Assembly (NCBI RefSeq): GCF_936981045.1
Contig: NZ_OW441264.1
Coordinates: 120,001 to 152,000 of the forward strand
Length of the DNA stretch: 32,000 nucleotides
Source: Candidatus Saccharimonadota bacterium
GTDB lineage: Bacteria; Bacteroidota; Bacteroidia; Cytophagales; Amoebophilaceae
Direction of reading: 5' to 3'
A program made the translations under genes and the position numbers. Below are positions 3,773 to 30,379 of this stretch, in pieces. The number at the start of each line of letters is the position of its first letter. The first letter of the stretch is position 1. The notes under the pieces were generated by a model. It saw only the letters and a program-made list of their open reading frames with translations. It did not search any database and had not been told where the DNA came from.

Positions 3773-3780
3773 GGAACTAC

Positions 3781-3818
3781 CTCAGTTGTAATAAAATAAC
3801 TATTTTATTACAACTGAG
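3781..3818. terminator. Perfect 18-bp inverted repeat (2-nt spacer) downstream of the porin-like gene
   Basis: CTCAGTTGTAATAAAATA-AC-TATTTTATTACAACTGAG lies 44 nt after the stop at 3862. There is no clear U-tract, so terminator function is inferred only. Confidence 0.4.
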
Positions 3819-3861
3819 ATAGTGAATATACTACTTACAAAAATATCTAGTCTATAAAATA

Positions 3862-5421: not shown

Positions 5422-5661
5422 ACGTGAGTTCGGGATTAGATTATTTTTTCATTTGATAATCAATATCAATGAAAATTTATAAAATTTGTTTTATAGACAG
5501 TTAAATAGGTAGTTGAATAACAAATAATTCTTATAATCAGTTTATTATATATATTGTATTTATAAAATTAGATATAAAAACTTGTTAAATAGGTGCAAAT
5601 ATTAACTAAATAATTGATATTAAATTGTTGTAAATCAGTCAAATAAATCCCGAACTCACGT
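5422..5661 (+). mobile_element. AT-rich ~240-bp MITE, copy A (orientation a)
   Basis: Starts ACGTGAGTTCGGGATT and ends AATCCCGAACTCACGT. The interior is near-identical to the other copies. The flanks TAGAC/TAATA are not a clean duplication. Confidence 0.85.
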
Positions 5662-6907: not shown

Positions 6908-6993
6908 GTATCCGTTCAACCAATGGCCAAACTGTCTACAAACCAGAAAAAACGTCCCCTGTAAAAAACTGCGATGCGTAAGTGAACCTTCAA
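6908..6993 (+). repeat. R-repeat 5' part, truncated by IS6 copy 3
   Basis: GTATCCGTTCAACCAATGGCC..AGAAAAAACGTCCCCTGTAAAAAACTGCGATGCGTAAGTG aligns with 17161-17205 of R1 and stops at the IS6 IR. Confidence 0.6.
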
Positions 6994-7826
6994 GGTTCTG
7001 TCGCGTTTATTCTAAAAAATGATTATTTTAGTATCGGTATTTAAAAAAGTAGTTATTATGTTTAATATTTCTCCCGAGTTATTACCATATTTTAAAGGTT
7101 ATTGTTCTTCATCAGAAGTCATCCTGTTATTTGTATACATGAAGTGTCGTTTTTCCTTGAGCTATAGAGATTTGGAAGAGATGATGCGTATGAGAGGCGC
7201 AAGAGTTGATCATTCTACGCTACAGAGATGGGTTATTAAGTTTGTTCCTCTGATAGATAAAGCAGTAAGAAAAAGAAAACGACCAATTGGTAGTAGTTGG
7301 AGAATGGATGAAACCTATGTTAAACTAAACGGGAAGTGGATCTATTTATATAGAGCAGTAGATCGTTATGGTGATACAGTTGACTTTTTTCTATCTGATC
7401 ATAGAGACAAGTCTTCAACGCTTTCTTTTTTTCGCAAGGCGATCACAGAAAATAATATTCCTAAGAAAGTAGTAATTGACAAAAGCGGTAGTAATAAAGC
7501 TGCCCTTGATGCGATCAATACAGATCTTGATCAAGATCATACCATTCAAATATTGCAAAACAAATATTTGAATAATAGAGTTGAACAAGATCATAGGTTT
7601 ATCAAAAAACGGATAAAACCTATGCTGGGTTTTAAGAATTTTTATTCTGCTTCCATTACTATTTCAGGGATAGAAAACATTCGTATGATTCAAAAAGGAC
7701 AAGTAAGAGGAGCTAAAAATCATCTTTCTACTTTTGAGAACTTTGCTATCTTAATGGCCGCATAATATCCAAAATTTGACTTAAACGAAAAACCTATACT
7801 AACGAAAATATAGACGCGACAGAACC
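6994..7826 (+). mobile_element. IS6-family insertion sequence, copy 3
   Basis: 833 bp, with GGTTCTGTCGCG at 6994 and CGCGACAGAACC ending at 7826, and an intact ORF. Confidence 0.95.
7019..7765 (+). CDS. IS6-family DDE transposase
   Basis: 248-aa ORF differing from copy 2 by a single residue (RPIGSSW versus RPVGSSW). Confidence 0.93.
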   Translation: MIILVSVFKKVVIMFNISPELLPYFKGYCSSSEVILLFVYMKCRFSLSYRDLEEMMRMRGARVDHSTLQRWVIKFVPLIDKAVRKRKRPIGSSWRMDETYVKLNGKWIYLYRAVDRYGDTVDFFLSDHRDKSSTLSFFRKAITENNIPKKVVIDKSGSNKAALDAINTDLDQDHTIQILQNKYLNNRVEQDHRFIKKRIKPMLGFKNFYSASITISGIENIRMIQKGQVRGAKNHLSTFENFAILMAA

Positions 7827-7847
7827 CGTTTGGCCAATGGTGTCACC

Positions 7848-9518: not shown

Positions 9519-9758
9519 ACTTGAGTTCGGGATTAGATTATTTTTTCATTTGATAATCAATATTAATAAAAATTTATAAAATTTGTTTTATAGACAGTTA
9601 AATAGGTAGTTGAATAACAAATAATTCTGATAATCAGTTTATTATATATATTATATTTATAAAATTAGATATAAAAACTTGTTAAATAGGTGCAAATATT
9701 AACTAAATAATTGATATTAAATTGTTGTAAATCAGTCAAATAAATACCGAACTCACGT
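9519..9758 (+). mobile_element. AT-rich ~240-bp MITE, copy B (orientation a)
   Basis: TIRs ACTTGAGTTCGGGATT / ATACCGAACTCACGT, flanked by the direct repeat TAATA (9514-9518 and 9759-9763). Confidence 0.9.
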
Positions 9759-12064: not shown

Positions 12065-12304
12065 ACGTGAGCTCGGGATTTATTTGACTGATTTACAACA
12101 ATTTAATATCAATTATTTAGTTAATATTTGCACCTATTTAACAAGTTTTTGTATCTAATTTTATAAATAAAATATATATAATAAACTGATTACCAGAATT
12201 ATTTGTTATTCAACTACCTATTTAACTGTCTATAAAACAAATTTTATAAATTTTCATTAATATTGATTATCAAATTAAAAAATAATCTAATCCCGAACTC
12301 ACGT
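12065..12304 (-). mobile_element. AT-rich ~240-bp MITE, copy C (orientation b)
   Basis: ACGTGAGCTCGGGATT...AATCCCGAACTCACGT, flanked by TAAATA (12059-12064 and 12305-12310), 50 nt upstream of the mtaB start. Confidence 0.9.
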
Positions 12305-12546: not shown

Positions 12547-12990
12547 ATGAATACAATATTAATGTGAGTTCGGGATTAGATTATTTTTTAATTTGATAAT
12601 CAATATTAATGAAAATTTATAAAATTTGTTTTATAGACAGTTAAATAGGTAGTTGAATAACAAATAATTATGGTAATCAGTTTATTGTATATATTTTATT
12701 TATAAAATTAGATATAAAAACTTGTTAAATAGGTGCAAATATTAACTAAATAATTGATATTAAATTGTTGTAAATCAGTCAAATAAATCCCGAACTCACG
12801 TTATTAGACTTAGATGTCAGCAAAAAATAGCTTGATGCATCTTTTTGTAATGCAGAAAATAAACCTGTATATCATAGAGTTTGGTAATAATGATAAAGGG
12901 CATAAGTCGCTTATGGCTTATTTGGCTCAAGCGCCCGTTAAGCTTATAGTATATGAACCAGCTGGTGGATGTGAGAAAGAGACATTTTAG
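12547..12990 (+). pseudogene. IS110-family transposase N-terminal remnant, interrupted by MITE copy D and carrying an in-frame TAG plus a frameshift
   Basis: Removing 12562-12806 restores MNTILDLDVSKK*LDASFCNAENKPVYHRV, then (after a frame shift) FGNNDKGHKSLMAYLAQAPVKLIVYEPAGGCEKETF*. This resembles the conserved IS110/DEDD N-terminus (IGxDVSK..LD .. F.N...G...L..wL .. vv.E.TGGYE). Confidence 0.55.
12562..12801 (+). mobile_element. AT-rich ~240-bp MITE, copy D (orientation a)
   Basis: ATGTGAGTTCGGGATT...AATCCCGAACTCACGT, flanked by TATTA (12557-12561 and 12802-12806). It is inserted after codon 5 of the IS110-like ORF. Confidence 0.9.
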
Positions 12991-13143: not shown

Positions 13144-15615
13144 ATGACCATATTCTCCTTGCCCCAACGGTATAATTTTTTGGAACGAGAAAAATATTGG
13201 CAGCACTTTTGGGCAACAGAATCGCTATATAGCTGGGATCCCACATTGCCTCGTGCAGATACTTTTGTGGTAGATACGCCTCCTCCTAGTATTTCTGGAC
13301 AGTTGCACATAGGCCATACCTGCAGCTATGCACAAGCTGATTTTATAGTCCGATTTCAACGCATGTTGGGTAAAAATATTTTTTATCCAATGGGCTTTGA
13401 TGATAATGGTTTACCCACAGAGCGATTGGTAGAAAAGCAAAAAGGCGTTCGTGTGGCTGATATGGATAGAGAGGAGTTTATAAGATTATGCTGGGAAGTA
13501 GTAGTTACTGAAGAGGAAAAGTGTAGGAATCTTTTTAAGGCTATGGCCCTTTCGGTTGACTGGAGCTTGGAATATCAGACGATTAGCCCACTATCTCGTA
13601 AGCTTTCGCAGATGTCTTTTTTGGCACTTTTGGAAAAAGGTGCGGTATACCGTAGTGCGCAACCTATGTTATGGGATCCAGTAGATGGTACCGCTTTGGC
13701 ACAAGCTGATATTGAAGACAAGGAGCGTGTCGCCTATATGAATGATATTCTATTTACACATGAAGCGACGCAAGCCCCTCTACCCATTGCTACGACTCGA
13801 CCAGAATTGTTGCCCGCTTGTGTGGCCTTATTCTACCATCCCGATGACTTGCGCTACCAGGATCTGGCCCACACCTATGCGATTACACCTATATTTAATA
13901 TAAGGGTCCCTATTTTAGCAGATGAGTTGGTTCAACCCAATAAGGGCACTGGTTTGGTGATGTGTTGCACGTTTGGAGACCCAACGGATGTAATGTGGTG
14001 GAAAAAACACCAATTGCCTACTTGTATCATCCTGAATAAACAAGGTAGGGTCACGCATACTGGTCCATTACAAGGGTTAAAGGTATCAGAAGCGCGTGAA
14101 AAAATCCTTCAAATCTTAAAAGATCAGTTGCTGTTGGTCAAGCAAACCGTCATACAGCAGTCTGTAAAATGTGCAGAACGTTCTGGTGCACCCTTAGAAA
14201 TGCTTACTACCCCCCAATGGTTTGTACGAACCATGGACCATAAAGCAGCACTTTTAGCTAAAGTCAAGCAACTCAAATGGCATCCTGCTGCCATGCAGCA
14301 TAGGCTAGAGGAATGGATTAATGGCATGGCTTGGGACTGGTGTATTAGCCGTCAACGTTATTTTGGTGTTCCTTTTCCGATTTGGTATTCTAAAAGATCT
14401 GGAGAAGAAGGTAAAGTTTTGGTGCCCACTATAGACCAGTTGCCTGTAAATCCACTTCAAGATCTACCCATAGGCTATACCAGCGCAGAGGTAGAACCAG
14501 ACTATGATGTGATGGATACTTGGGCAACTAGTAGTATTTCTCCCCAACTTTCTTCTCATGCTATTCATAAGGACTTTAGTGTGGACTATAATAGGCATCT
14601 CAAGTTGTTTCCAATGGATTTGCGCTCACAAGCCCATGAAATTATACGAACTTGGACCTTTTATACTTTACTCAAAGCCCATTTGCATGAGGATAGTGTG
14701 CCTTGGAAAAATATAATGATCCATGGGTGGTGCCTGGCGCCAGATAAACAAAAAATGTCTAAATCTAAGGGTAATGTGCTCCTTCCAGAAAAGCTTTTAC
14801 AAGCGTATGGGGCCGATGTTATCCGCTATTGGGCAGCCCATGCTCGTTTAGGTTCAGATACTTGTTATTCTGATAATGTGATGAAAAATGGGAAAAGGCT
14901 GGTTACTAAATTATGGAATGCCGGTAGGTTTATTTTAGGCCATTTGGATAAAATAGAAGGATTCAATCACCCGCTTGAGTTGCAAAAAATCACCCATACG
15001 CTAGATAAATGGCTCTTGCAATCGCTGGCAGAACTGACTGAAAAGGTCTATCTACAGTTACTAGCCTATCGGTATGCAGAGGCGTTGGAATCGGTAGAAA
15101 CATTCTTTTGGTCCATTTTTTGTGATGATTATCTCGAGATTAGTAAAGCTAGGGTCTATAATGGACTTCAGCAGGATGGTCAAGGTCAGCGTAGTGCTAT
15201 TTTAACGCTTTATCATACTTTCTATGGTCTATTACAGCTCTTTGCACCTATTTTGCCCCATATTACGGAAGAACTGTCTCAGGGGCTTTATCCCCATAAA
15301 GGTTCTATTCACCGAAGAGGCAATTGGCCTAAATGGGCATTACACGCTACTGTAAGTCAATCGCAACTGAACCAAGTAGTCCATCTTAGAGTAATCATTG
15401 GGTTGGTACGTAAGGCTAAAGCAGATTGTAAGCTTTCTATAAAATCGCCTATTGCATTGCTTGCCATTCGTGGTACACTTTTAGAGGAAGATTTAAGCCA
15501 AGATCTTAAAGCCGTTACTACGGCGACAAAAGTAGTATGTAATGACCTAACGTTGGATCGCATGGACCTACAAGTAGTGGGTAAGCAATGTGCAATAGGG
15601 ATAGTATGGGGATAA
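13144..15615 (+). CDS. valS: Valine--tRNA ligase (short, archaeal/actinobacterial/Rickettsia-like type)
   Basis: Class I motifs LHIGH and [22 protein letters not shown] and [12 protein letters not shown] are characteristic of type-2 ValRS. At 823 aa it lacks the long C-terminal coiled coil of E. coli-type ValRS. Confidence 0.85.
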
Positions 15616-15624
15616 GACATGGGG

Positions 15625-15675
15625 GTGCTGTTTGTTGATCCAGCAAAAAACAGCACATCAATTCCTTTTTTACCA
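15625..15675 (+). terminator. Hairpin plus T-run after valS (a stand-alone copy of the R-repeat hairpin-2 module)
   Basis: GTGCTGTTT (15625-15633) pairs perfectly with AAACAGCAC (15648-15656). The loop contains TTGATCCAGCAA. The T-run CCTTTTTT follows. It begins 10 nt after the stop codon. Confidence 0.5.
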
Positions 15676-15909
15676 CTGACCTGAAAAATATTAGCGCAGG
15701 CGCGTAAAAAACGGTTTATGAATCGTTGGTATGTCTCATCGCGTATGGCCGCCAATAAAAAATTTGACATGCATGCAGCCTTCTGGCCATATTGCTTAAA
15801 AACAAGAAAAAACCAATTGAGATGAAAACTAAAACTTTTTACAAAAATTTATCTATTTTTAACGCACTTTCAGAAAAAAATATTTTTATAAAGCGCTTTT
15901 TTATAAAAT

Positions 15910-17134: not shown

Positions 17135-17334
17135 ATGTCCTCTGCTGCTTACTGACCTTATTGCGAAAAAGAAGGCCCCTTGTAAAAGGTTGCGATGCAA
17201 AAGTCCATATTACCGTTGAAAAGAAAAACAGTTTAGGTGAAGGTCACGAAGTCGCTTCTGTTTTTTCCGGTGTGCTTGAAGCAACTTTTTATACAGGGCT
17301 TGATTTTTGGGCTACCTTTTGATCAAGCAAAAAG
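17135..17334 (+). repeat. R repeat, copy R1 (forward)
   Basis: GGCCCCTTGTAAAAGGTTGC (17174-17193) pairs with GCAACTTTTTATACAGGGC (17281-17299). TTGATTTTTGG follows, then the hairpin CTTTTGATCAAGCAAAAAG. It aligns with 25965-26153. Confidence 0.75.
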
Positions 17335-17354
17335 TGTGATATAAATTCTTTCCA

Positions 17355-19193: not shown

Positions 19194-19236
19194 GGGTATC
19201 TGTTTAGGTCAGTGATAAAAAAGGCATTTATATCCT

Positions 19237-19271
19237 GCTTTTTGCTTGATCAAAAAGTAGGCAAAAAAGCT
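19237..19271 (-). repeat. R repeat copy R5, hairpin-2 part (reverse orientation), abutting IS6 copy 5
   Basis: CTGCTTTTTGCTTGATCAAAAAGTAGGCAAAAAAGC matches 28175-28210. Confidence 0.65.
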
Positions 19272-20104: not shown

Positions 20105-20149
20105 CTTTTTTGTTTATTTTGTTACATGGCCATACGGCTGAATGGATAC
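20105..20149 (-). repeat. R repeat copy R5, distal part (reverse orientation)
   Basis: CTTTTTTGTTTATTTTGTTACATGGCCATACGGCTGAATGGATAC aligns with 28313-28359 of R4. Confidence 0.6.
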
Positions 20150-20165
20150 AAAGATATAATGCGTG

Positions 20166-20238: not shown

Positions 20239-20321
20239 TAAAATGTATCCGTTTATTTAGTTGGAAAAAATTGTATGCATGCTACTACCTGGCTAGGCTA
20301 CGAAAAAAACGCACACTATAA

Positions 20322-20539
20322 GTATCTATTCAGCTACCTGGTAACGTTACACTCCAAAAACAGAAGAAATGCCCATTATAAAAAGTTGCGACTCATCACC
20401 CTTTCCTGAAAGATGACCAGAAAATCAGTTTGGTTGGGCTTGTAGGGCGGCTTCTGGTTTTCCAGCTTTAGGGGTACACTTTCAGCAACTTTTTACACAG
20501 AGCTTGATTTTTTTGGCTACTTCTTTATCAAGAAAAAAG
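20322..20539 (+). repeat. R repeat, copy R3 (forward on +), between tRNA-Arg and tRNA-Pro
   Basis: GTATCTATTCAGC.., GCCCATTATAAAAAGTTGC .. GCAACTTTTTACACAGAGC, TTGATTTTTTTGGCTACTTCTTTATCAAGAAAAAAGTAGG. Confidence 0.7.
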
Positions 20540-20559
20540 TAGGATATACATTCCTTTCG

Positions 20560-20643: not shown

Positions 20644-20883
20644 ACGTGAGTTCGGGATTTATTTGACTGATTTACAACAATTTAATATCAATTATTTAGT
20701 TAACATTTGCACCTATTTAACAAGTTTTTATATCTAATTTTATAAATATAATATATATAATAAACTGATTATCAGAATTATTTGTTATTCAACTACCTAT
20801 TTAACTGTCTATAAAACAAATTTTATAAATTTTTATTAATATTGATTATCAAATGAAAAAATAATCTAATCCCGAACTCACGT
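20644..20883 (-). mobile_element. AT-rich ~240-bp MITE, copy E (orientation b), between tRNA-Pro and tRNA-Ser
   Basis: Perfect TIRs ACGTGAGTTCGGGATT / AATCCCGAACTCACGT, flanked by TACAA (20639-20643 and 20884-20888). Confidence 0.92.
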
Positions 20884-24591: not shown

Positions 24592-25824
24592 ATGCAAATT
24601 TCTTTTTTTCTTGCCAAACGTTACGTTAAAAAACATGGCTACACAACCCTGATTTGTAAATTGTCTAGACTGGCTTGCTATAGTATGGCATTGGGTACAG
24701 CTATTTTAGTATGCATACTATCCACTATGAATGGTATGGAAAAGCTATTATCCGCTTTATTTTATTCCTATACGCCTACATTAAAAATAGAACCTAGAAC
24801 AAGTAAAACATTTGTCTATGATCCCAAATTAAAAAGTAAGCTGATGCATCTTGCTAGTGTAACAAATATTGTGGAAGTATTAGAAGCAACTGCACTGGTA
24901 CGGTTGCAGCGTCAGCAGACCATTGTGACCATTAAAGGCGTTTCAAATAATTTCCCAGAAAGTGACTTTTATAGAAATTGCAGGCGTATGGATGCGGTTA
25001 CTTTTTGGGGGGATGGTAAGCTTCAAGCTGCTGCGGGTATACGGGTTGCCCAATGTTTACAATGGGCACCTGATAACAATAGGGTAGAGGTTTTTTATCC
25101 AAAGCAGGGCAGCCACCATCTACATCAGCCCTATAAGCGTGTAACTTTAGAGGTGAATGGCCTTTTCTCTATAGCGCGGCAAATAGATAGCAAGTATATG
25201 ATTACCTCTATTCACTTTGTGGAAGCGTTGACCGATGGCTTCCATAAACGTACCTATTGGGAGGTTGTAATCAAAGATACAGCGGCGCTAACAAGCACGC
25301 AAGCAAGCATACAAAGATTATTACCAGATGGCTATAAGGTAACCAATCGAGATGAACAAAATGAAACCCGTCGTAGAGCTATTTTTATTGAGCGGCTTTG
25401 CGTCTCTTTTATTTTTGCTTTGGTATTGCTTTTGGCCTCGCTTCATATTTTCTTTATGCTATGCATGTTGATATTACACAAGCAAAAAGATATCATGATC
25501 CTTTCTTCACTTGGGGCTACACCGGGTCAAATAGGTAAGGTTTTTTTCTATAGTGGGCTTTTGGTATCCTTGAAAGGTATTCTATATGGTCTTATAATAG
25601 GGTGGGCTTTGTGCTTGTTGCAGCAAAAATTTGGCATCATTACCTTTACTAAGGCGTGCAATAGGACCCCTTATCCTATAGAGATGCATCGGTTCGATTG
25701 CTTATACACCTCTATTGTAACCACTTTATTTAGTCTTTTAGCTTCCCTTTGGCCGGTGAAGCGAGCTATCCAATTGGCCAGGAAGTCATTGGGTGGCGCC
25801 AACTTAAAGGAAAATGTATTTTAA
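24592..25824 (+). CDS. FtsX/LolC/LolE-family ABC transporter permease
   Basis: 410 aa. N-terminal FFLAKRYV TM, a large periplasmic loop, then three C-terminal TMs (FtsX-like architecture). Confidence 0.75.
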   Translation: MQISFFLAKRYVKKHGYTTLICKLSRLACYSMALGTAILVCILSTMNGMEKLLSALFYSYTPTLKIEPRTSKTFVYDPKLKSKLMHLASVTNIVEVLEATALVRLQRQQTIVTIKGVSNNFPESDFYRNCRRMDAVTFWGDGKLQAAAGIRVAQCLQWAPDNNRVEVFYPKQGSHHLHQPYKRVTLEVNGLFSIARQIDSKYMITSIHFVEALTDGFHKRTYWEVVIKDTAALTSTQASIQRLLPDGYKVTNRDEQNETRRRAIFIERLCVSFIFALVLLLASLHIFFMLCMLILHKQKDIMILSSLGATPGQIGKVFFYSGLLVSLKGILYGLIIGWALCLLQQKFGIITFTKACNRTPYPIEMHRFDCLYTSIVTTLFSLLASLWPVKRAIQLARKSLGGANLKENVF

Positions 25825-25964
25825 TTTGATTGAATATCAAATTAGACCTATTTTGAAGCCTATTTCTAATGACAATTTTGGTGTCGAAGCTTGTTTATGC
25901 TCGTCAAATACACCCTACTACAAGGCATAGCATATTGGAAATAAAATTAATAATTCAGAAATTG

Positions 25965-26153
25965 TGCTGCTTATTGTTCCTATTACGAAAAAGAACGCCC
26001 CTTGTAAAAAGTTGCCATTAGAAAGTGCACCTTACAAATGAAAAGAAAAATTGAAGCCCGCGTAGCGGACGAGTTCTGTTTTTCTCGGTGTGCTTGCAGC
26101 AATTTTTTGCATGAGGGCTTGATTTTTTGGCTACTTTTTGATCCAGCAAAAAG
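25965..26153 (+). repeat. R repeat, copy R2 (forward)
   Basis: TGCTGCTTATTG..CGAAAAAGAACGCCCCTTGTAAAAAGTTGC .. GCAATTTTTTGCATGAGGGCTTGATTTTTTGGCTACTTTTTGATCCAGCAAAAAG, colinear with R1. Confidence 0.75.
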
Positions 26154-26174
26154 CAACATTCATCATCCTTATTA

Positions 26175-26413
26175 ACGTGAGTTCGGTATTTATTTGACTG
26201 ATTTACAATAATTTAATATCAATTATTTAGTTAATATTTGCACCTATTTAACAAGTTTTTATATCTAATTTTATAAATATAATATATATAATAAACTGAT
26301 TATCAGAATTATTTTTTATTCAACAACCTATTTAACTGTCTATAAAACAAATTTTATAAATTTTCATTAATATTGATTATCAAATAAAAAATAATCTAAT
26401 CCCGAACTCACGT
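26175..26413 (-). mobile_element. AT-rich ~240-bp MITE, copy F (orientation b), ending 13 nt before the metG ATG
   Basis: ACGTGAGTTCGGTATT...AATCCCGAACTCACGT, flanked by TATTA (26170-26174 and 26414-26418). Confidence 0.92.
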
Positions 26414-26426
26414 TATTAGTACACAA

Positions 26427-28127
26427 ATGGCTCATCCAAAAAGATATACGGTTACCGCTGCACTTCCCTATGCAAATGGGCCCGTCCACTTAGGTCATGT
26501 AGCAGGGGCCTATCTTCCTGCTGATATTTACGTTCGTTATTTAAGGCAAAAACAAGCTACTGTAGTGTTTATTAGTGGTTCTGATGAACATGGGGTGCCT
26601 GTGGTAATTCGTGCCCAACAAGAAGGTTCTACGCCTCAAAAAGTAGTGGATCAATACCATACACTTATTAAAGAATCACTAGATGGATTGGGTATTAGCT
26701 TTGATATCTTTGCAAGAACGTCCTCACCTACTCATTATGAGACCGCAACGGAATTTTTTAAGGAATTGCACCAAAAGGACATATTTGAGGTGTATGCAAC
26801 AGAGCAATATTATGACCCTGTTTGTGAGCAATTTCTATCTGATCGCTACATCAAGGGCAGCTGTCCGAACCCGAACTGTAATCATCCCGATGCCTATGGA
26901 GATCAATGTGAAGCGTGTGGCAGCACACTAAGTCCAGAAGAATTGATTGATCCAATTTCTGTTATTAGCGGCGCAAAACCTATTTTAAGATCCACTAAAC
27001 ATTGGTATCTACCACTAGATAAGTATGAAGGCTGGCTTAAAAAGTGGATTTTAGAAGAACATAAAGATTTTAAAACCAATGTATATGGTCAATGTAAAAG
27101 CTGGCTAGACCAAGGTTTGCGTCCACGTGCTGTAACCCGTGATTTAGCTTGGGGCATTCCTGTTCCACTGCCTGAAGGAAGCGGAAAGGTCCTCTATGTC
27201 TGGTTCGATGCACCGATTGGGTATATTAGCGCAACCAAAGAGTGGGCAAAAGCACAACAAATCGATTGGAAACCTTTTTGGAAAGATCCAGCTACCAAGC
27301 TTGTCCATTTCCTTGGCAAAGACAATATTGTATTCCATTGTATTATTTTTCCTGTTATGCTTAAAGCACATGGAAAGTTTATTTTGCCTCAGCAGGTTCC
27401 AGCCAATGAATTTTTAAATTTAGAGGGAAAGAAGATTTCTACATCCCGCAACCATGCGGTTTGGTTGCATGATTATTTAGCAGATTTTCCAGATAAAGCA
27501 GATGTATTGCGTTATGTACTCTGTACCATTGCGCCAGAAAATAAAGACAGCGATTTTACTTGGCAAGATTTCCAGGATAAAAATAATTATGAACTGGTAG
27601 CTAACCTTGGCAATTTGGTCCATAGAACCCTAAGTTTGGTGCATCAATATTTTCGTGGATTGGTTCCACCCAATATGGCGCCTAATGAAGCGGATCAATC
27701 CTTACTGACTACATTAATGGCTTCTTTTACAGAAGTAGGTAATGCTATAGAACAGTTTAAATTTAAAGAAGCACTCCAATTATGTATGGGCTACGCTACA
27801 TTGGGCAATAAATACCTAACCGATAGGCGACCATGGCATTTGGTAAAAAGCAACCTAGAAGAGGCTGGCACTGTATTGCATGTCACATTGCAACTCATAG
27901 CTACTGTAACCCTGTTGATCAAACCTTTTTTGCCTACAACAAGTGAGAAAATGGCGCATATGTTGGGGTTAAAAGAAACAGGCTGGGGGAACTTACATGT
28001 GACCAAGCTCGTACAATCAGGGGATCCATTAGCACTTCCTATATTATTATTTGAGAAAATTGAAGATGATGTCATTGAAGTACAAAGGAAAAAGTTACAA
28101 AGCCTATCTACTGAAACAGTAGTGTAA
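26427..28127 (+). CDS. metG: Methionine--tRNA ligase (short form without a C-terminal tRNA-binding domain)
   Basis: PVHLGH (HIGH), KISTS (KMSKS), zinc knuckle CPNPNCNHPDAYGDQCEACG, 566 aa. Confidence 0.92.
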   Translation: MAHPKRYTVTAALPYANGPVHLGHVAGAYLPADIYVRYLRQKQATVVFISGSDEHGVPVVIRAQQEGSTPQKVVDQYHTLIKESLDGLGISFDIFARTSSPTHYETATEFFKELHQKDIFEVYATEQYYDPVCEQFLSDRYIKGSCPNPNCNHPDAYGDQCEACGSTLSPEELIDPISVISGAKPILRSTKHWYLPLDKYEGWLKKWILEEHKDFKTNVYGQCKSWLDQGLRPRAVTRDLAWGIPVPLPEGSGKVLYVWFDAPIGYISATKEWAKAQQIDWKPFWKDPATKLVHFLGKDNIVFHCIIFPVMLKAHGKFILPQQVPANEFLNLEGKKISTSRNHAVWLHDYLADFPDKADVLRYVLCTIAPENKDSDFTWQDFQDKNNYELVANLGNLVHRTLSLVHQYFRGLVPPNMAPNEADQSLLTTLMASFTEVGNAIEQFKFKEALQLCMGYATLGNKYLTDRRPWHLVKSNLEEAGTVLHVTLQLIATVTLLIKPFLPTTSEKMAHMLGLKETGWGNLHVTKLVQSGDPLALPILLFEKIEDDVIEVQRKKLQSLSTETVV

Positions 28128-28174: not shown

Positions 28175-28359
28175 CACTTTTTGCTTGATCAAAAAGTGGA
28201 CAAAAAATCAAGATCAAGCGCTGATGAAAAAAGTTGTGAGTAGAAAATGTAGCTTACAGCTGATTTTCCAGCTACAAGCTACATTTTCTACTCACAACTT
28301 TTTCCAATGCGCATTTTTTCTTGTTTTAGGGTAGTATGGCTAAAAGGTTGAATGGATAC
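28175..28359 (-). repeat. R repeat, copy R4 (reverse), with a near-perfect ~35-bp stem
   Basis: Hairpin CCACTTTTTGCTTGATCAAAAAGTGG. The long inverted repeat 28227-28262 / 28269-28303 (AAAAAGTTGTGAGTAGAAAATGTAGCTT..) has 2 mismatches. It ends GGTTGAATGGATAC. Confidence 0.8.
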
Positions 28360-28405
28360 TAATTAACGTGAGTTCGGGATTTATTTGACTGATTTACAAC
28401 AATTT

Positions 28406-29681
28406 TAGGCCGTTGTGATAGATTTCTATTATAATATTTTTAGGGTTGTTTAGACTGATTTTTGGTATTAAAGTGGTATTAATTTTATTATTTATTGATT
28501 TTCATGTACTTTTATTGCATTTTAGACAGACCATTCCTCTAAAGACCTCTTAATATGATATTTGGCGACCTGTATAAGTTATAGGCTATTGCTTCGATAA
28601 CGTGTTGCGTATGAGTTTTAGCAAGTCCTATGTAGCGAGCTCCTGAGCTTCGGAACCAACTTTTAATACTTCCAAATACACGTTCTACTTTATACCTGGT
28701 TTTAGCTACCAATGTATTAAACCGTTTAGCAGTAGGTGATAAAGGATTATTTCTAGTAGCTTTCTTCTGAATAGCTGATTTTAAGGCTTTATTCTTTAAT
28801 AAGGTTTCATTAGGTGATCCGCTATAGCCCTTATCTGCATATAGCCTACTACCTACTTTTAGCTCTACTTTATCCAATAAGACTTGTAAATGAGCACTAT
28901 CATGACTAGATGCTTTTGTGGTACTGACTGCTAGGACTAAGCCTTCTTTACTTTCCACAAGGATGTGACGCTTATACCCATAGTAGAGATTATCTCCTTT
29001 TTTTGTCCAACTCGCTTCTGGATCTACACCTTTTTGATAACTTTCGGCTACAGTTATAGTGCCATCTTCATGGAGATCATAGCTTTTTTTACCTTTAGGG
29101 CGCCTAGGGGTAGGCGTAATAGAGGCATCAACAACTGCACCATGTTGAACTAATACACCATGACTAGATAGTTGATCGTTAATTATTTTCAATAACCTTT
29201 CTAGGACCTGCTTCTCCGTAAGCGCAGTCCTAAACCTGCTTAATACGCTATGATCTGGAACAGAACTATCCATGGAAATACGACAAAATCTGCTGAAAGT
29301 GATACGATCATTTACTTCTTCTTCTACTTGATAGTCACTCAGAGCATACCATGTTTGAAGCAACAGCATTTTAAATAAAAGAAGTGGGCTATAAGCTGCC
29401 TTTCCTGATAAACACAAACCTTTAGGATAATACAAGAAAAGTTCTTTTTCTATTACTTTCCAAGTAATCAGCTTATTAAGCTGATCGAAAAAAGTATGCT
29501 TACACTTACGTCGACTGGCTGAAATATCTGCAAAACTTAATTGATTATTTGTTTTGACGGCCATAACAATATTATTAAAAAGCTTAAGTTTAAACGATTA
29601 AAGAATCAACCTAATTTAACCATTGTATAACACTAAAAGTCACTTTTTATAACAAAGCTTAAAACTCTATTGCAACAACTT
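28406..29681 (-). mobile_element. IS5-family insertion sequence (~1.28 kb) nested in MITE G
   Basis: Contains a 341-aa IS5/InsH-like transposase. The MITE sequence (C)AATTT is duplicated at both junctions. The terminal repeats are imperfect (GTTGT..ATAGA.TTT), so the ends are good to about +/-5 nt. Confidence 0.8.
28539..29564 (-). CDS. IS5-family DDE transposase (InsH-like)
   Basis: N-terminal LSFADI..YSPLLLFKMLLLQTWYALSDYQVEEEVNDRITFSRF (transposase InsH N-terminal domain pattern). DDE region VVDASI .. YADKGY .. ERVFGSIK. Confidence 0.85.
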   Translation of the reverse strand: MAVKTNNQLSFADISASRRKCKHTFFDQLNKLITWKVIEKELFLYYPKGLCLSGKAAYSPLLLFKMLLLQTWYALSDYQVEEEVNDRITFSRFCRISMDSSVPDHSVLSRFRTALTEKQVLERLLKIINDQLSSHGVLVQHGAVVDASITPTPRRPKGKKSYDLHEDGTITVAESYQKGVDPEASWTKKGDNLYYGYKRHILVESKEGLVLAVSTTKASSHDSAHLQVLLDKVELKVGSRLYADKGYSGSPNETLLKNKALKSAIQKKATRNNPLSPTAKRFNTLVAKTRYKVERVFGSIKSWFRSSGARYIGLAKTHTQHVIEAIAYNLYRSPNIILRGL

Positions 29682-29955
29682 CAATTTAATATCAATTATT
29701 TAGTTAATAATTGCACCTATTTAATAAGTTTTTATATCTAATTTTATAAATATAATATATATAATAAACTGATTATCAGAATTATTTGTTATTCAACTAC
29801 CTATTTAACTGTCTATAAAACAAATTTTATAAATTTTTATTAATATTGATTATCAAATGAAAAAATAATCTAATCCCGAACTCACGTTGGTTAGTATTTT
29901 TTTATCTCCAAATTTAAAACACAAAGGAGCTTTTTAAAGCTATTTTTTAACAAGC

Positions 29956-29972
29956 TAATCCCGAACTCAGGT
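29956..29972. repeat. Solo MITE terminus
   Basis: TAATCCCGAACTCAGGT has one mismatch to the MITE end, with no MITE interior attached. It lies 5 nt before the point where ppdK homology begins. Confidence 0.7.
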
Positions 29973-29977
29973 TATAT

Positions 29978-30379
29978 AAGATTGGTGTAATGATAGAGTT
30001 GCCAAGAGCAGCCTTACAAGCGGCAACCATTTCACCATTGGTCGATTTTTTTAGAATTGGAACCAATGATTTAACCCAAACTACCCTTGGTATTTCACGT
30101 GATGATGGCGCAAAATTTTTAGACAGTTACCAACAAAAGGGCTTGCTTAAAGGAGACCCTTTTGTTACGCTTGATCAAGAAGGCGTTGGAAAATTGATTC
30201 AAATAGCGGTAGCAAGAGGTAGGTCGGCCAATCCAAATTTAAAAATAGGTATTTGTGGCGAACATGGAGGCAATCCACCTTCTATTGAATTTTTCGAGTC
30301 GATAGGTTTAGATTATATATCCTGTTCTCCATATAGAGTGCCTATTGCAAAGTTAGCTGCTGCCAAGGTAAGGAAGTGA
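29978..30379 (+). pseudogene. ppdK: Pyruvate, phosphate dikinase C-terminal remnant (~133 codons of an expected ~900)
   Basis: [13 protein letters not shown] .. [20 protein letters not shown] .. [35 protein letters not shown] matches the PEP-utilising TIM-barrel end of PPDK. No upstream domains are present. Confidence 0.8.

Follow-up and report, generated by a model that had tools for sequence, protein, structure and literature searches.

Intergenic repeats around metG in a Cardinium endosymbiont: a probable product of selfish insertions, among them an apparently undescribed palindromic family

Two families of non-coding repeats, a palindromic repeat (here called R) and a MITE, follow each other in the same order on both sides of metG in the 32,000-nt stretch of DNA analyzed here (the window). 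The preliminary description had taken this order for a punctuation of gene spacers, with R placed after a stop codon and the MITE before the next start. This "ordered punctuation" probably results from selfish insertion in two waves, each family having its own target preferences, together with a pseudogene scar. The spacer between the lolE-like gene and metG would be a landing pad that has grown from <200 nt to 602 nt by the successive insertion of three unrelated non-coding repeats. R would be an old palindromic element, REPIN- or MITE-like, and the MITE (MITECca01) a young derivative of the IS982-family ISCca4, expanded in this strain, inserting at AT-rich TAWWA sites with 5-bp duplications and presumably moved in trans by the ISCca4 transposase. 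Both families would persist where no gene is destroyed, tiny intra-operon spacers included. This reading is built on direct observations of what the elements are, where they end, which duplications flank them, how old they are relative to each other and at which sites the strains differ in carrying them; the insertions themselves were presumably near-neutral.

The window has a G+C content of ca. 37%, and IS or MITE DNA makes up ca. 21% of it, to which R adds another 3%. MetG and ValS each have a 100% identical counterpart in the Cardinium endosymbiont of O. gibbosus (a spider host). The gene labels assigned earlier agree with the Pfam assignments, which back two lspA genes, sufB, an mtaB-like gene, valS, a radical-SAM gene (hemW-like), an ABC transporter, a Mur ligase, an FtsX/LolE-type permease, metG, a C-terminal fragment of ppdK and gltX. 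There are also four full copies and a partial one of an IS6-family element (ISCca2), whose transposase, when compared with genome contigs, matched only relatives, at ≤82% identity. Outside Cardinium/Amoebophilaceae, the top matches of ValS (gene at 13144-15615) are found in Rickettsia (60-63% identity), not in other Bacteroidota, which is consistent with horizontal transfer among endosymbiont lineages. The two lspA genes (signal peptidase II) are tandem paralogues, at 288-869 and 897-1487, that are separated by a gap of 27 nt and share a 197-nt stretch 82% identical. The repeats and the features connected to them are collected in Table 1.

Table 1. Location of repeats, mobile-element remnants and associated genes in the window
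Feature	Positions	Strand	Remarks
MITE A	5422..5661	-	tandem spacer orf273/orf416; 119 nt past stop, 309 nt before start
R6	6913..6993	+	one R arm, cut by IS6 (ISCca2) copy
MITE B	9519..9758	-	101 nt from upstream stop; 231 nt upstream of sufB
MITE C	12065..12304	+	divergent mtaB/valS spacer
MITE D	12562..12801	-	divergent mtaB/valS spacer
M-type hairpin module, solo	15632..15685	+	16 nt past valS stop
R1	17143..17336	+	fills hemW-ABC spacer; 15 nt past stop, 18 nt before ATG
R5	19203..19266	-	M module and arm start, cut by IS6 (ISCca2) copy
R3	20318..20556	+	between tRNA-Pro and tRNA-Arg
MITE E	20644..20883	+	between tRNA-Ser and tRNA-Pro; duplication TACAA on + / TTGTA on -
E70, third dispersed repeat	25841..25912	+	starts 17 nt past lolE stop
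R2	25965..26155	+	conserved flank to ~26168; 140 nt past lolE stop
MITE F	26170..26418	+	TIR-to-TIR 26175-26413; TATTA duplication 26170-26174 and 26414-26418
metG (methionine--tRNA ligase)	26427..28127	+	Pfam tRNA-synt_1g at 8.9e-152
R4	28160/28176..28359 (element listed to 28365)	-	inverted vs R1, R2; M hairpin adjoins metG stop
MITE G	28366..29887	+	two halves, 28366-28405 and 29682-29887, split by IS
IS5-family element (ISCca3-like)	28406..29681	-	1.28 kb, in MITE G at ~position 40
IS982-family (ISCca4-like) right-end remnant	29894..29976	+	includes solo TIR
ppdK 3' fragment	29975..30379	+	last ~130 codons; Pfam PEP-utilizers_C positions 180-291 of 293

The MITE is identical with the published MITECca01, a 240-bp element derived from IS982. 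It was described for this same genome (Halter et al. 2022, Microbiol Spectr, PMC9769881) as an ORF-less element of ~240 bp whose inverted repeats resemble those of ISCca4 (IS982 family). According to that paper it is the most abundant mobile element of the genome (169 copies, mainly intergenic or within other mobile elements) and confined to the O. gibbosus strain. Length, TIRs, the lack of an ORF, copy number and location all agree with the MITE of the window, and we found no difference between them. In the same paper, which also gives the IS inventory of this genome (PMC9769881), we saw neither the 5-bp TAWWA duplication nor the copy in a tRNA operon nor the decayed relative in cBtQ1 (see below). 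Our sample, seven of the 169 copies, comes from the window, where a solo TIR is also found; the TIR matched 15 times, where chance would give 0.17. In six copies the distance between the outer TIR ends is 239-240 bp, and the seventh (G) carries a 1.28-kb IS; no ORF is listed inside the intact copies. The TIR has 16-17 nt (ACGTGAGTTCGGGATT), and the copies are 95-99% identical to each other. Clean 5-bp duplications surround five of the seven (TATTA twice, TAATA, AAATA and TACAA), and positions -4 and -1 are occupied by A in every left flank (7/7), giving TAWWA as target and YYTAWTA as flank consensus. The kinship with IS982 is also seen in the left ~125 nt, which share 71% identity with the end of an IS982-like element of the Nabis Cardinium. 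Where a conserved AGMTTGTW motif would be expected just inside the left inverted repeat, the MITE copies read AGATTATT (seven of eight positions) and the ISCca4 remnant of the window AGCTTGTT (eight of eight). A metagenome scan with the MITE end yielded 50 listed single matches that were due to chance or to the TIR only, with no full MITE among them. Several elements in a 36% G+C metagenome assembly (L078, L092, L119, L103 and L122, contigs JAESFG01...) end like MITE/ISCca4, their last 20-23 nt being identical to the inverted repeat (ATCTAATCCCGAACTCACGTT). In Cardinium cBtQ1 (L005, 2520-2790), ca. 240 nt are collinear with the entire MITECca01 at 65-67% identity, with degenerate ends; judging from this alignment, the stretch may be a decayed older relative.

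The second family, R, apparently has not been described before; its members are structured palindromic repeats present in six Cardinium strains. The palindromes R1, R2, R3 and R4 are imperfect and 190-240 nt long, and the layout, as seen in R2, consists of an arm, a tip, the inverted arm and a terminal mini-hairpin (M). All the arms of R1-R4 contain GCCC-TTGTAAAAAGTTGC, and the tip is variable, GC-rich in some copies. The M hairpin, CTACTTTTTG-cttgat-CAAAAAGTAG followed by ATATAAATTCCTT, is found at one or both R ends; one Cardinium copy (L129) has M modules on both. R copies are in general 70-80% alike (R1 and R2, for example, are 76% identical over 197 nt), far from the 95-99% of the MITE copies, and R is therefore the older family. 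R2 is predicted to fold into a long nested hairpin and matches the arm HMM with E = 1e-13 to 1e-17. R4 contains a near-perfect hairpin with 38-nt arms (28225-28306; fold z = -8.5); the R1 and R2 folds, with z = -0.9 and -2.3, do not stand out. When 11 copies were aligned, standard pairs filled 86.8% of the pair cells, compared with 43-58% in controls with slid partners. Changes on both sides affect five pairs, of which three belong to the M hairpin, and the covariation score exceeded those of 500/500 shuffles. These compensatory changes point to some structural constraint, either for transposition or at the RNA level. A profile search with the R arm over 1.64 Mb gave matches confined to Cardinium loci of the six strains, i.e., cOegib (the window), those of Nabis limbatus and Tyrophagus, cBtQ1 and two assembled from public sequencing runs. 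Rfam searches, with gathering and with E-value thresholds, retrieved only tRNAs and spurious hairpin hits, with no family matching R or the MITE, and we found no description of an R-type repeat in the searchable Cardinium papers.

R resembles a MITE-type element in several respects: it has inverted terminal sequences and no ORF, it is dispersed, and filled and empty sites can be recognized between strains. No clear target-site duplication was visible at two filled/empty comparisons, and no IS in the sequence examined has R ends that would identify a parent. The ends adjoin purine-rich AAAGG(A) DNA, and the same sequence is present at the empty sites of the relatives. Of the proposals made in the preliminary description, an insertion-site preference specific to each family is the one that fits these data, with the MITE at TAWWA and R beside AAAGG(A). 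The M module can also stand alone, as it does after valS in the window; an M module is found after valS in the Nabis Cardinium, too. Past valS in the latter (L131, 12560-12800), a large palindrome, GCCGCCGATAAAAAATTTGGCAC ... GTGCCAAATTTTATCGGCGGC, comes after the M module, with a tip (CCCGCTACGCG) that resembles the GC-rich tip of R2, and possibly belongs to the R family as a variant. Another near-perfect hairpin (3776-3823, 23-nt arms and a 2-nt loop), located between the stop of orf416 and the end of an IS6 copy, holds a GTTGTAATAAAATA motif that recalls the R arm. Of the five IS6 (ISCca2) copies, two truncate R elements, namely R6 and R5 (IS6 ends at 6994 and 19267). Their far sides (7827-7847 and 20105-20164) have neither the expected 8-bp duplication nor the other R half, which suggests deletion or rearrangement mediated by IS6.

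By these features R joins the familiar class of intergenic palindromic repeats, apparently as an undescribed member. Like the REP/BIME and REPIN sequences of proteobacteria, it is made of short palindromic units (the M hairpin) inverted at the ends of a longer hairpin, and both are intergenic only, dispersed, and present or absent between strains. However, R is about twice as long (ca. 200 nt) and belongs to a Bacteroidota endosymbiont. REP elements have roles in termination and mRNA stabilization. Correia elements of Neisseria and ERIC/RUP-type MITEs can carry promoters, act as terminators and be processed in transcripts. They share with the repeats described here the inverted ends, the absence of coding capacity and the location between genes. 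Behavior of the Correia type is what the preliminary description had proposed, but no Bacteroidota-type promoter box was found in MITECca01, and its orientation bias is insignificant. The Rickettsia palindromic elements (RPEs) are, as here, palindromic repeats in an arthropod endosymbiont. Unlike them, R is seen between genes only and has no sequence similarity to RPEs; the RPE-like case is E70, the third repeat of the lolE-metG spacer, found in-frame inside a protein-coding gene (ppdK) of the Philonthus Cardinium.

The spacer upstream of metG illustrates the succession of insertions. Recomputed boundaries confirmed the coordinates reported earlier for the end of the lolE-like (FtsX-domain) ORF at 25824, for R2, for MITE F and for the metG ATG at 26427. 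An R copy occupies the same site upstream of metG in L128 and L130 (Nabis) and is missing from the 179-nt spacer of L129. Since the gene upstream of R is a different one in Nabis, this R copy goes with the metG 5' side rather than with the lolE 3' end. R2, whose end was ca. 30 nt from the metG ATG before the MITE insertion, would have been the first resident on this side, and the MITE would later have hit the CCTTATTA site between R2 and the ATG. MITE F now ends 13 nt from the ATG, which places the metG promoter in or beyond the MITE, so that transcription of metG would either run through R2 and the MITE or start within the latter. In the closest relative (L128, 5150-5172, MetG 93% identical), the MITE body is absent just upstream of metG. 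We rejected this locus as a clean empty site for MITE F because a TIR-like GACTCACGT followed by TATTA occupies the same position; it may represent either what is left of an IS982-type end or a hot spot for insertion. E70 is 86-87% identical to two sites of the Philonthus Cardinium (L126, 11814-11886 and 19877-19946), with a core of ca. 55 nt that is nearly identical between strains. Its copy in the Philonthus ppdK is an in-frame insertion of ca. 35 aa near the N-terminus, judged against the Nabis ppdK.

The second place where R precedes a MITE is of a different nature. The preliminary description had treated the DNA between metG and a "ppdK remnant" as a gene spacer; the remnant, R4 and MITE G are indeed there. 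However, in the Cardinium of Philonthus (L126) and Nabis (L130), metG and an intact ppdK (893-934 aa) overlap or are separated by 35 nt, so that the interval in the window is a deletion scar rather than a spacer. From metG on, it consists of R4, MITE G carrying the IS5 element, the ISCca4 remnant and the last ~130 codons of ppdK (87.6% identity to the end of the intact L126 gene). The homology to ppdK begins at 29975, right after the ISCca4-type inverted repeat, and ca. 800 codons have been lost where R4, MITE G and the ISCca4 end now sit. The ISCca4-like remnant has 75-79% identity to IS ends at three cBtQ1 loci (L002, L003 and L069) and carries the MITE inverted repeat with one mismatch. R is found after metG in the window, L128 and L129, and is absent where ppdK is intact. 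This second R-then-MITE case would thus be a pile of mobile-element debris in the place of most of ppdK. MITE G was also considered as an autonomous parent of the MITE and rejected, since its internal ORF (28539-29564, Pfam DDE_Tnp_1 and DUF772) is the transposase of the IS5-family element, which has its own ends and is inserted at about position 40.

The closeness of R and MITE in both places could have another origin, namely that the ISCca4 transposase preferentially puts MITECca01 at the outer terminus of R, drawn by the hairpin or by the sequence YTWATTA, the order then merely reflecting which R end was hit. MITE F begins 1-2 nt past the conserved R2 terminus and MITE G within ca. 6 nt of that of R4, the two sites hit being near-identical (CCTTATTA and ACTAATTA), and some IS families target REP-type hairpins. 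Two of the seven MITEs lie ≤20 nt from an R end where 5-7% would be expected by length (P ≈ 0.05-0.08), but this proximity statistic is post hoc and borderline. Moreover, the other five copies are not near any R, the TAWWA target is also used away from R, and MITE G sits in rearranged DNA with an imperfect duplication. Such targeting seems to us unlikely, and independent insertion of the two families remains the preferred reading.

We consider quite unlikely the functional punctuation originally proposed, in which R is a terminator or 3'-end stabilizer, the AT-rich MITE supplies or insulates a promoter, and selection keeps the order. The order itself is seen in both cases, but with n = 2 their concordance has a chance probability of P = 0.5 (0.25 for both being R-first), and one of the two is the pseudogene scar. 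The other copies contradict the rule that R comes after the stop and the MITE before the start. The fractional positions of the MITEs between stop and start in tandem spacers are 0.28 (A), 0.30 (B), 0.61 (E) and 0.96 (F), i.e., A and B are closer to the upstream stop, against the rule. R1 is about equally near the stop and the next ATG, R2, 140 nt from the stop, was once much nearer to the metG start, and R4 has the opposite orientation to R1 and R2. MITEs C and D were confirmed in the divergent mtaB/valS spacer. The classification of valS/hemW and hemW/ABC as spacers that need only a 3' signal proved inconsistent, since both are tandem like lolE/metG. There is some trace of a 3'-end association of R: ca. 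15 classifiable R loci are in tandem or convergent spacers and none in divergent ones (P ~0.17), the spacers of seven gene-called loci amounting to 85 tandem, 11 convergent and 12 divergent. This absence is suggestive, not significant, and counts as weak support for a role of R in punctuation.

Comparison with the relatives indicates that R1, R3 and MITE E are insertions into intra-operon spacers of 20-29 nt, a tRNA operon included. The hemW-ABC spacer has 23 nt in the Nabis Cardinium and 227 nt in the window, owing to R1. The tRNA-Pro/tRNA-Arg spacer measures 28-29 nt in both Nabis and Philonthus Cardinium; L129, which has an R copy there, shows 259 nt, and the window 320 nt (R3). For tRNA-Ser/tRNA-Pro, the values are 21-22 nt in the relatives and 263 nt in the window (MITE E), and removal of MITE E and one TTGTA copy leaves a spacer of 20 nt that resembles the one in L129. 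If an efficient terminator stood at these positions, tRNA-Arg(UCU) and the ABC transporter would be silenced, which argues against strong termination by R. The order MITE, tRNA-Pro, R, tRNA-Arg also leaves tRNA-Arg behind R without a MITE, and the location at the end of transcription units expected of a terminator does not hold for the intra-operon R1 and R3. R would then be at most a weak terminator, or else the insertions would bring their own promoters.

As for the signals in R itself, the cores examined by eye have AT-rich stems between runs of A5-6 and T5-6; with A-tract, stem and T-tract nested on both strands, they might function either way. This symmetry could give partial, bidirectional termination or 3'-end protection, and the near-perfect hairpin of R4 and the covariation of the hairpins also count in favor of such a role. 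On the other side, a scan for canonical terminators found nothing in R on the sense strand, its sole flag being the GC-rich tip of R2 on the minus strand, and the folds of R1 and R2 are unexceptional. The proposal of R as a terminator placed after stop codons is not supported, though weak or partial termination would be compatible with its terminator-like A-tract/stem/T-tract arrangement. The M end of R as an outward promoter (TTGATC-N15-17-TATAAA) was also considered and is unsupported; this end faces the 3' end of a gene at 9 of 13 loci.

As for the MITE as a promoter donor, near the right end of six of the seven copies there is a TTAATA-N17/18-AATAAT motif, which in MITE F ends 32 nt before the metG ATG, and the distance of 13 nt between MITE and ATG leaves room for a MITE-borne promoter. 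This motif, however, matches 9/12 of the sigma-70 consensus and not that of Bacteroidota, which is different, and sigma-70-like motifs are not enriched (56 found versus 67 expected). Bacteroidota-type -7 boxes (TAnnTTTG) are not enriched in intergenic DNA either (1.24 versus 1.25 per kb), and there is no perfect copy in any MITE or upstream of metG. The right end points downstream in four of the five MITEs of tandem spacers, an orientation bias that is not significant (P = 0.19).

A mixed scenario, in which R is mobile across several Cardinium strains with its hairpins maintained by selection, MITECca01 lands preferentially at R ends, and the two jointly create new, partly functional transcription-unit boundaries, we hold to be very unlikely; if true, R would attenuate read-through and stabilize 3' ends, the MITE right end would be an outward promoter, e.g., for metG, and selfish repeats would re-punctuate the decaying operons of a shrinking endosymbiont genome.

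With the MITE already published and the ordering rule unsupported, the original finding carries little weight. What remains useful is R, an apparently undescribed repeat with clear insertion polymorphism. Both repeat families are tolerated within operons and, in the case of the MITE, just before the essential metG, which limits the effect they may have on transcription. These loci provide cases to test how the genes of an endosymbiont stay expressed when its intergenic space is overrun by mobile elements.
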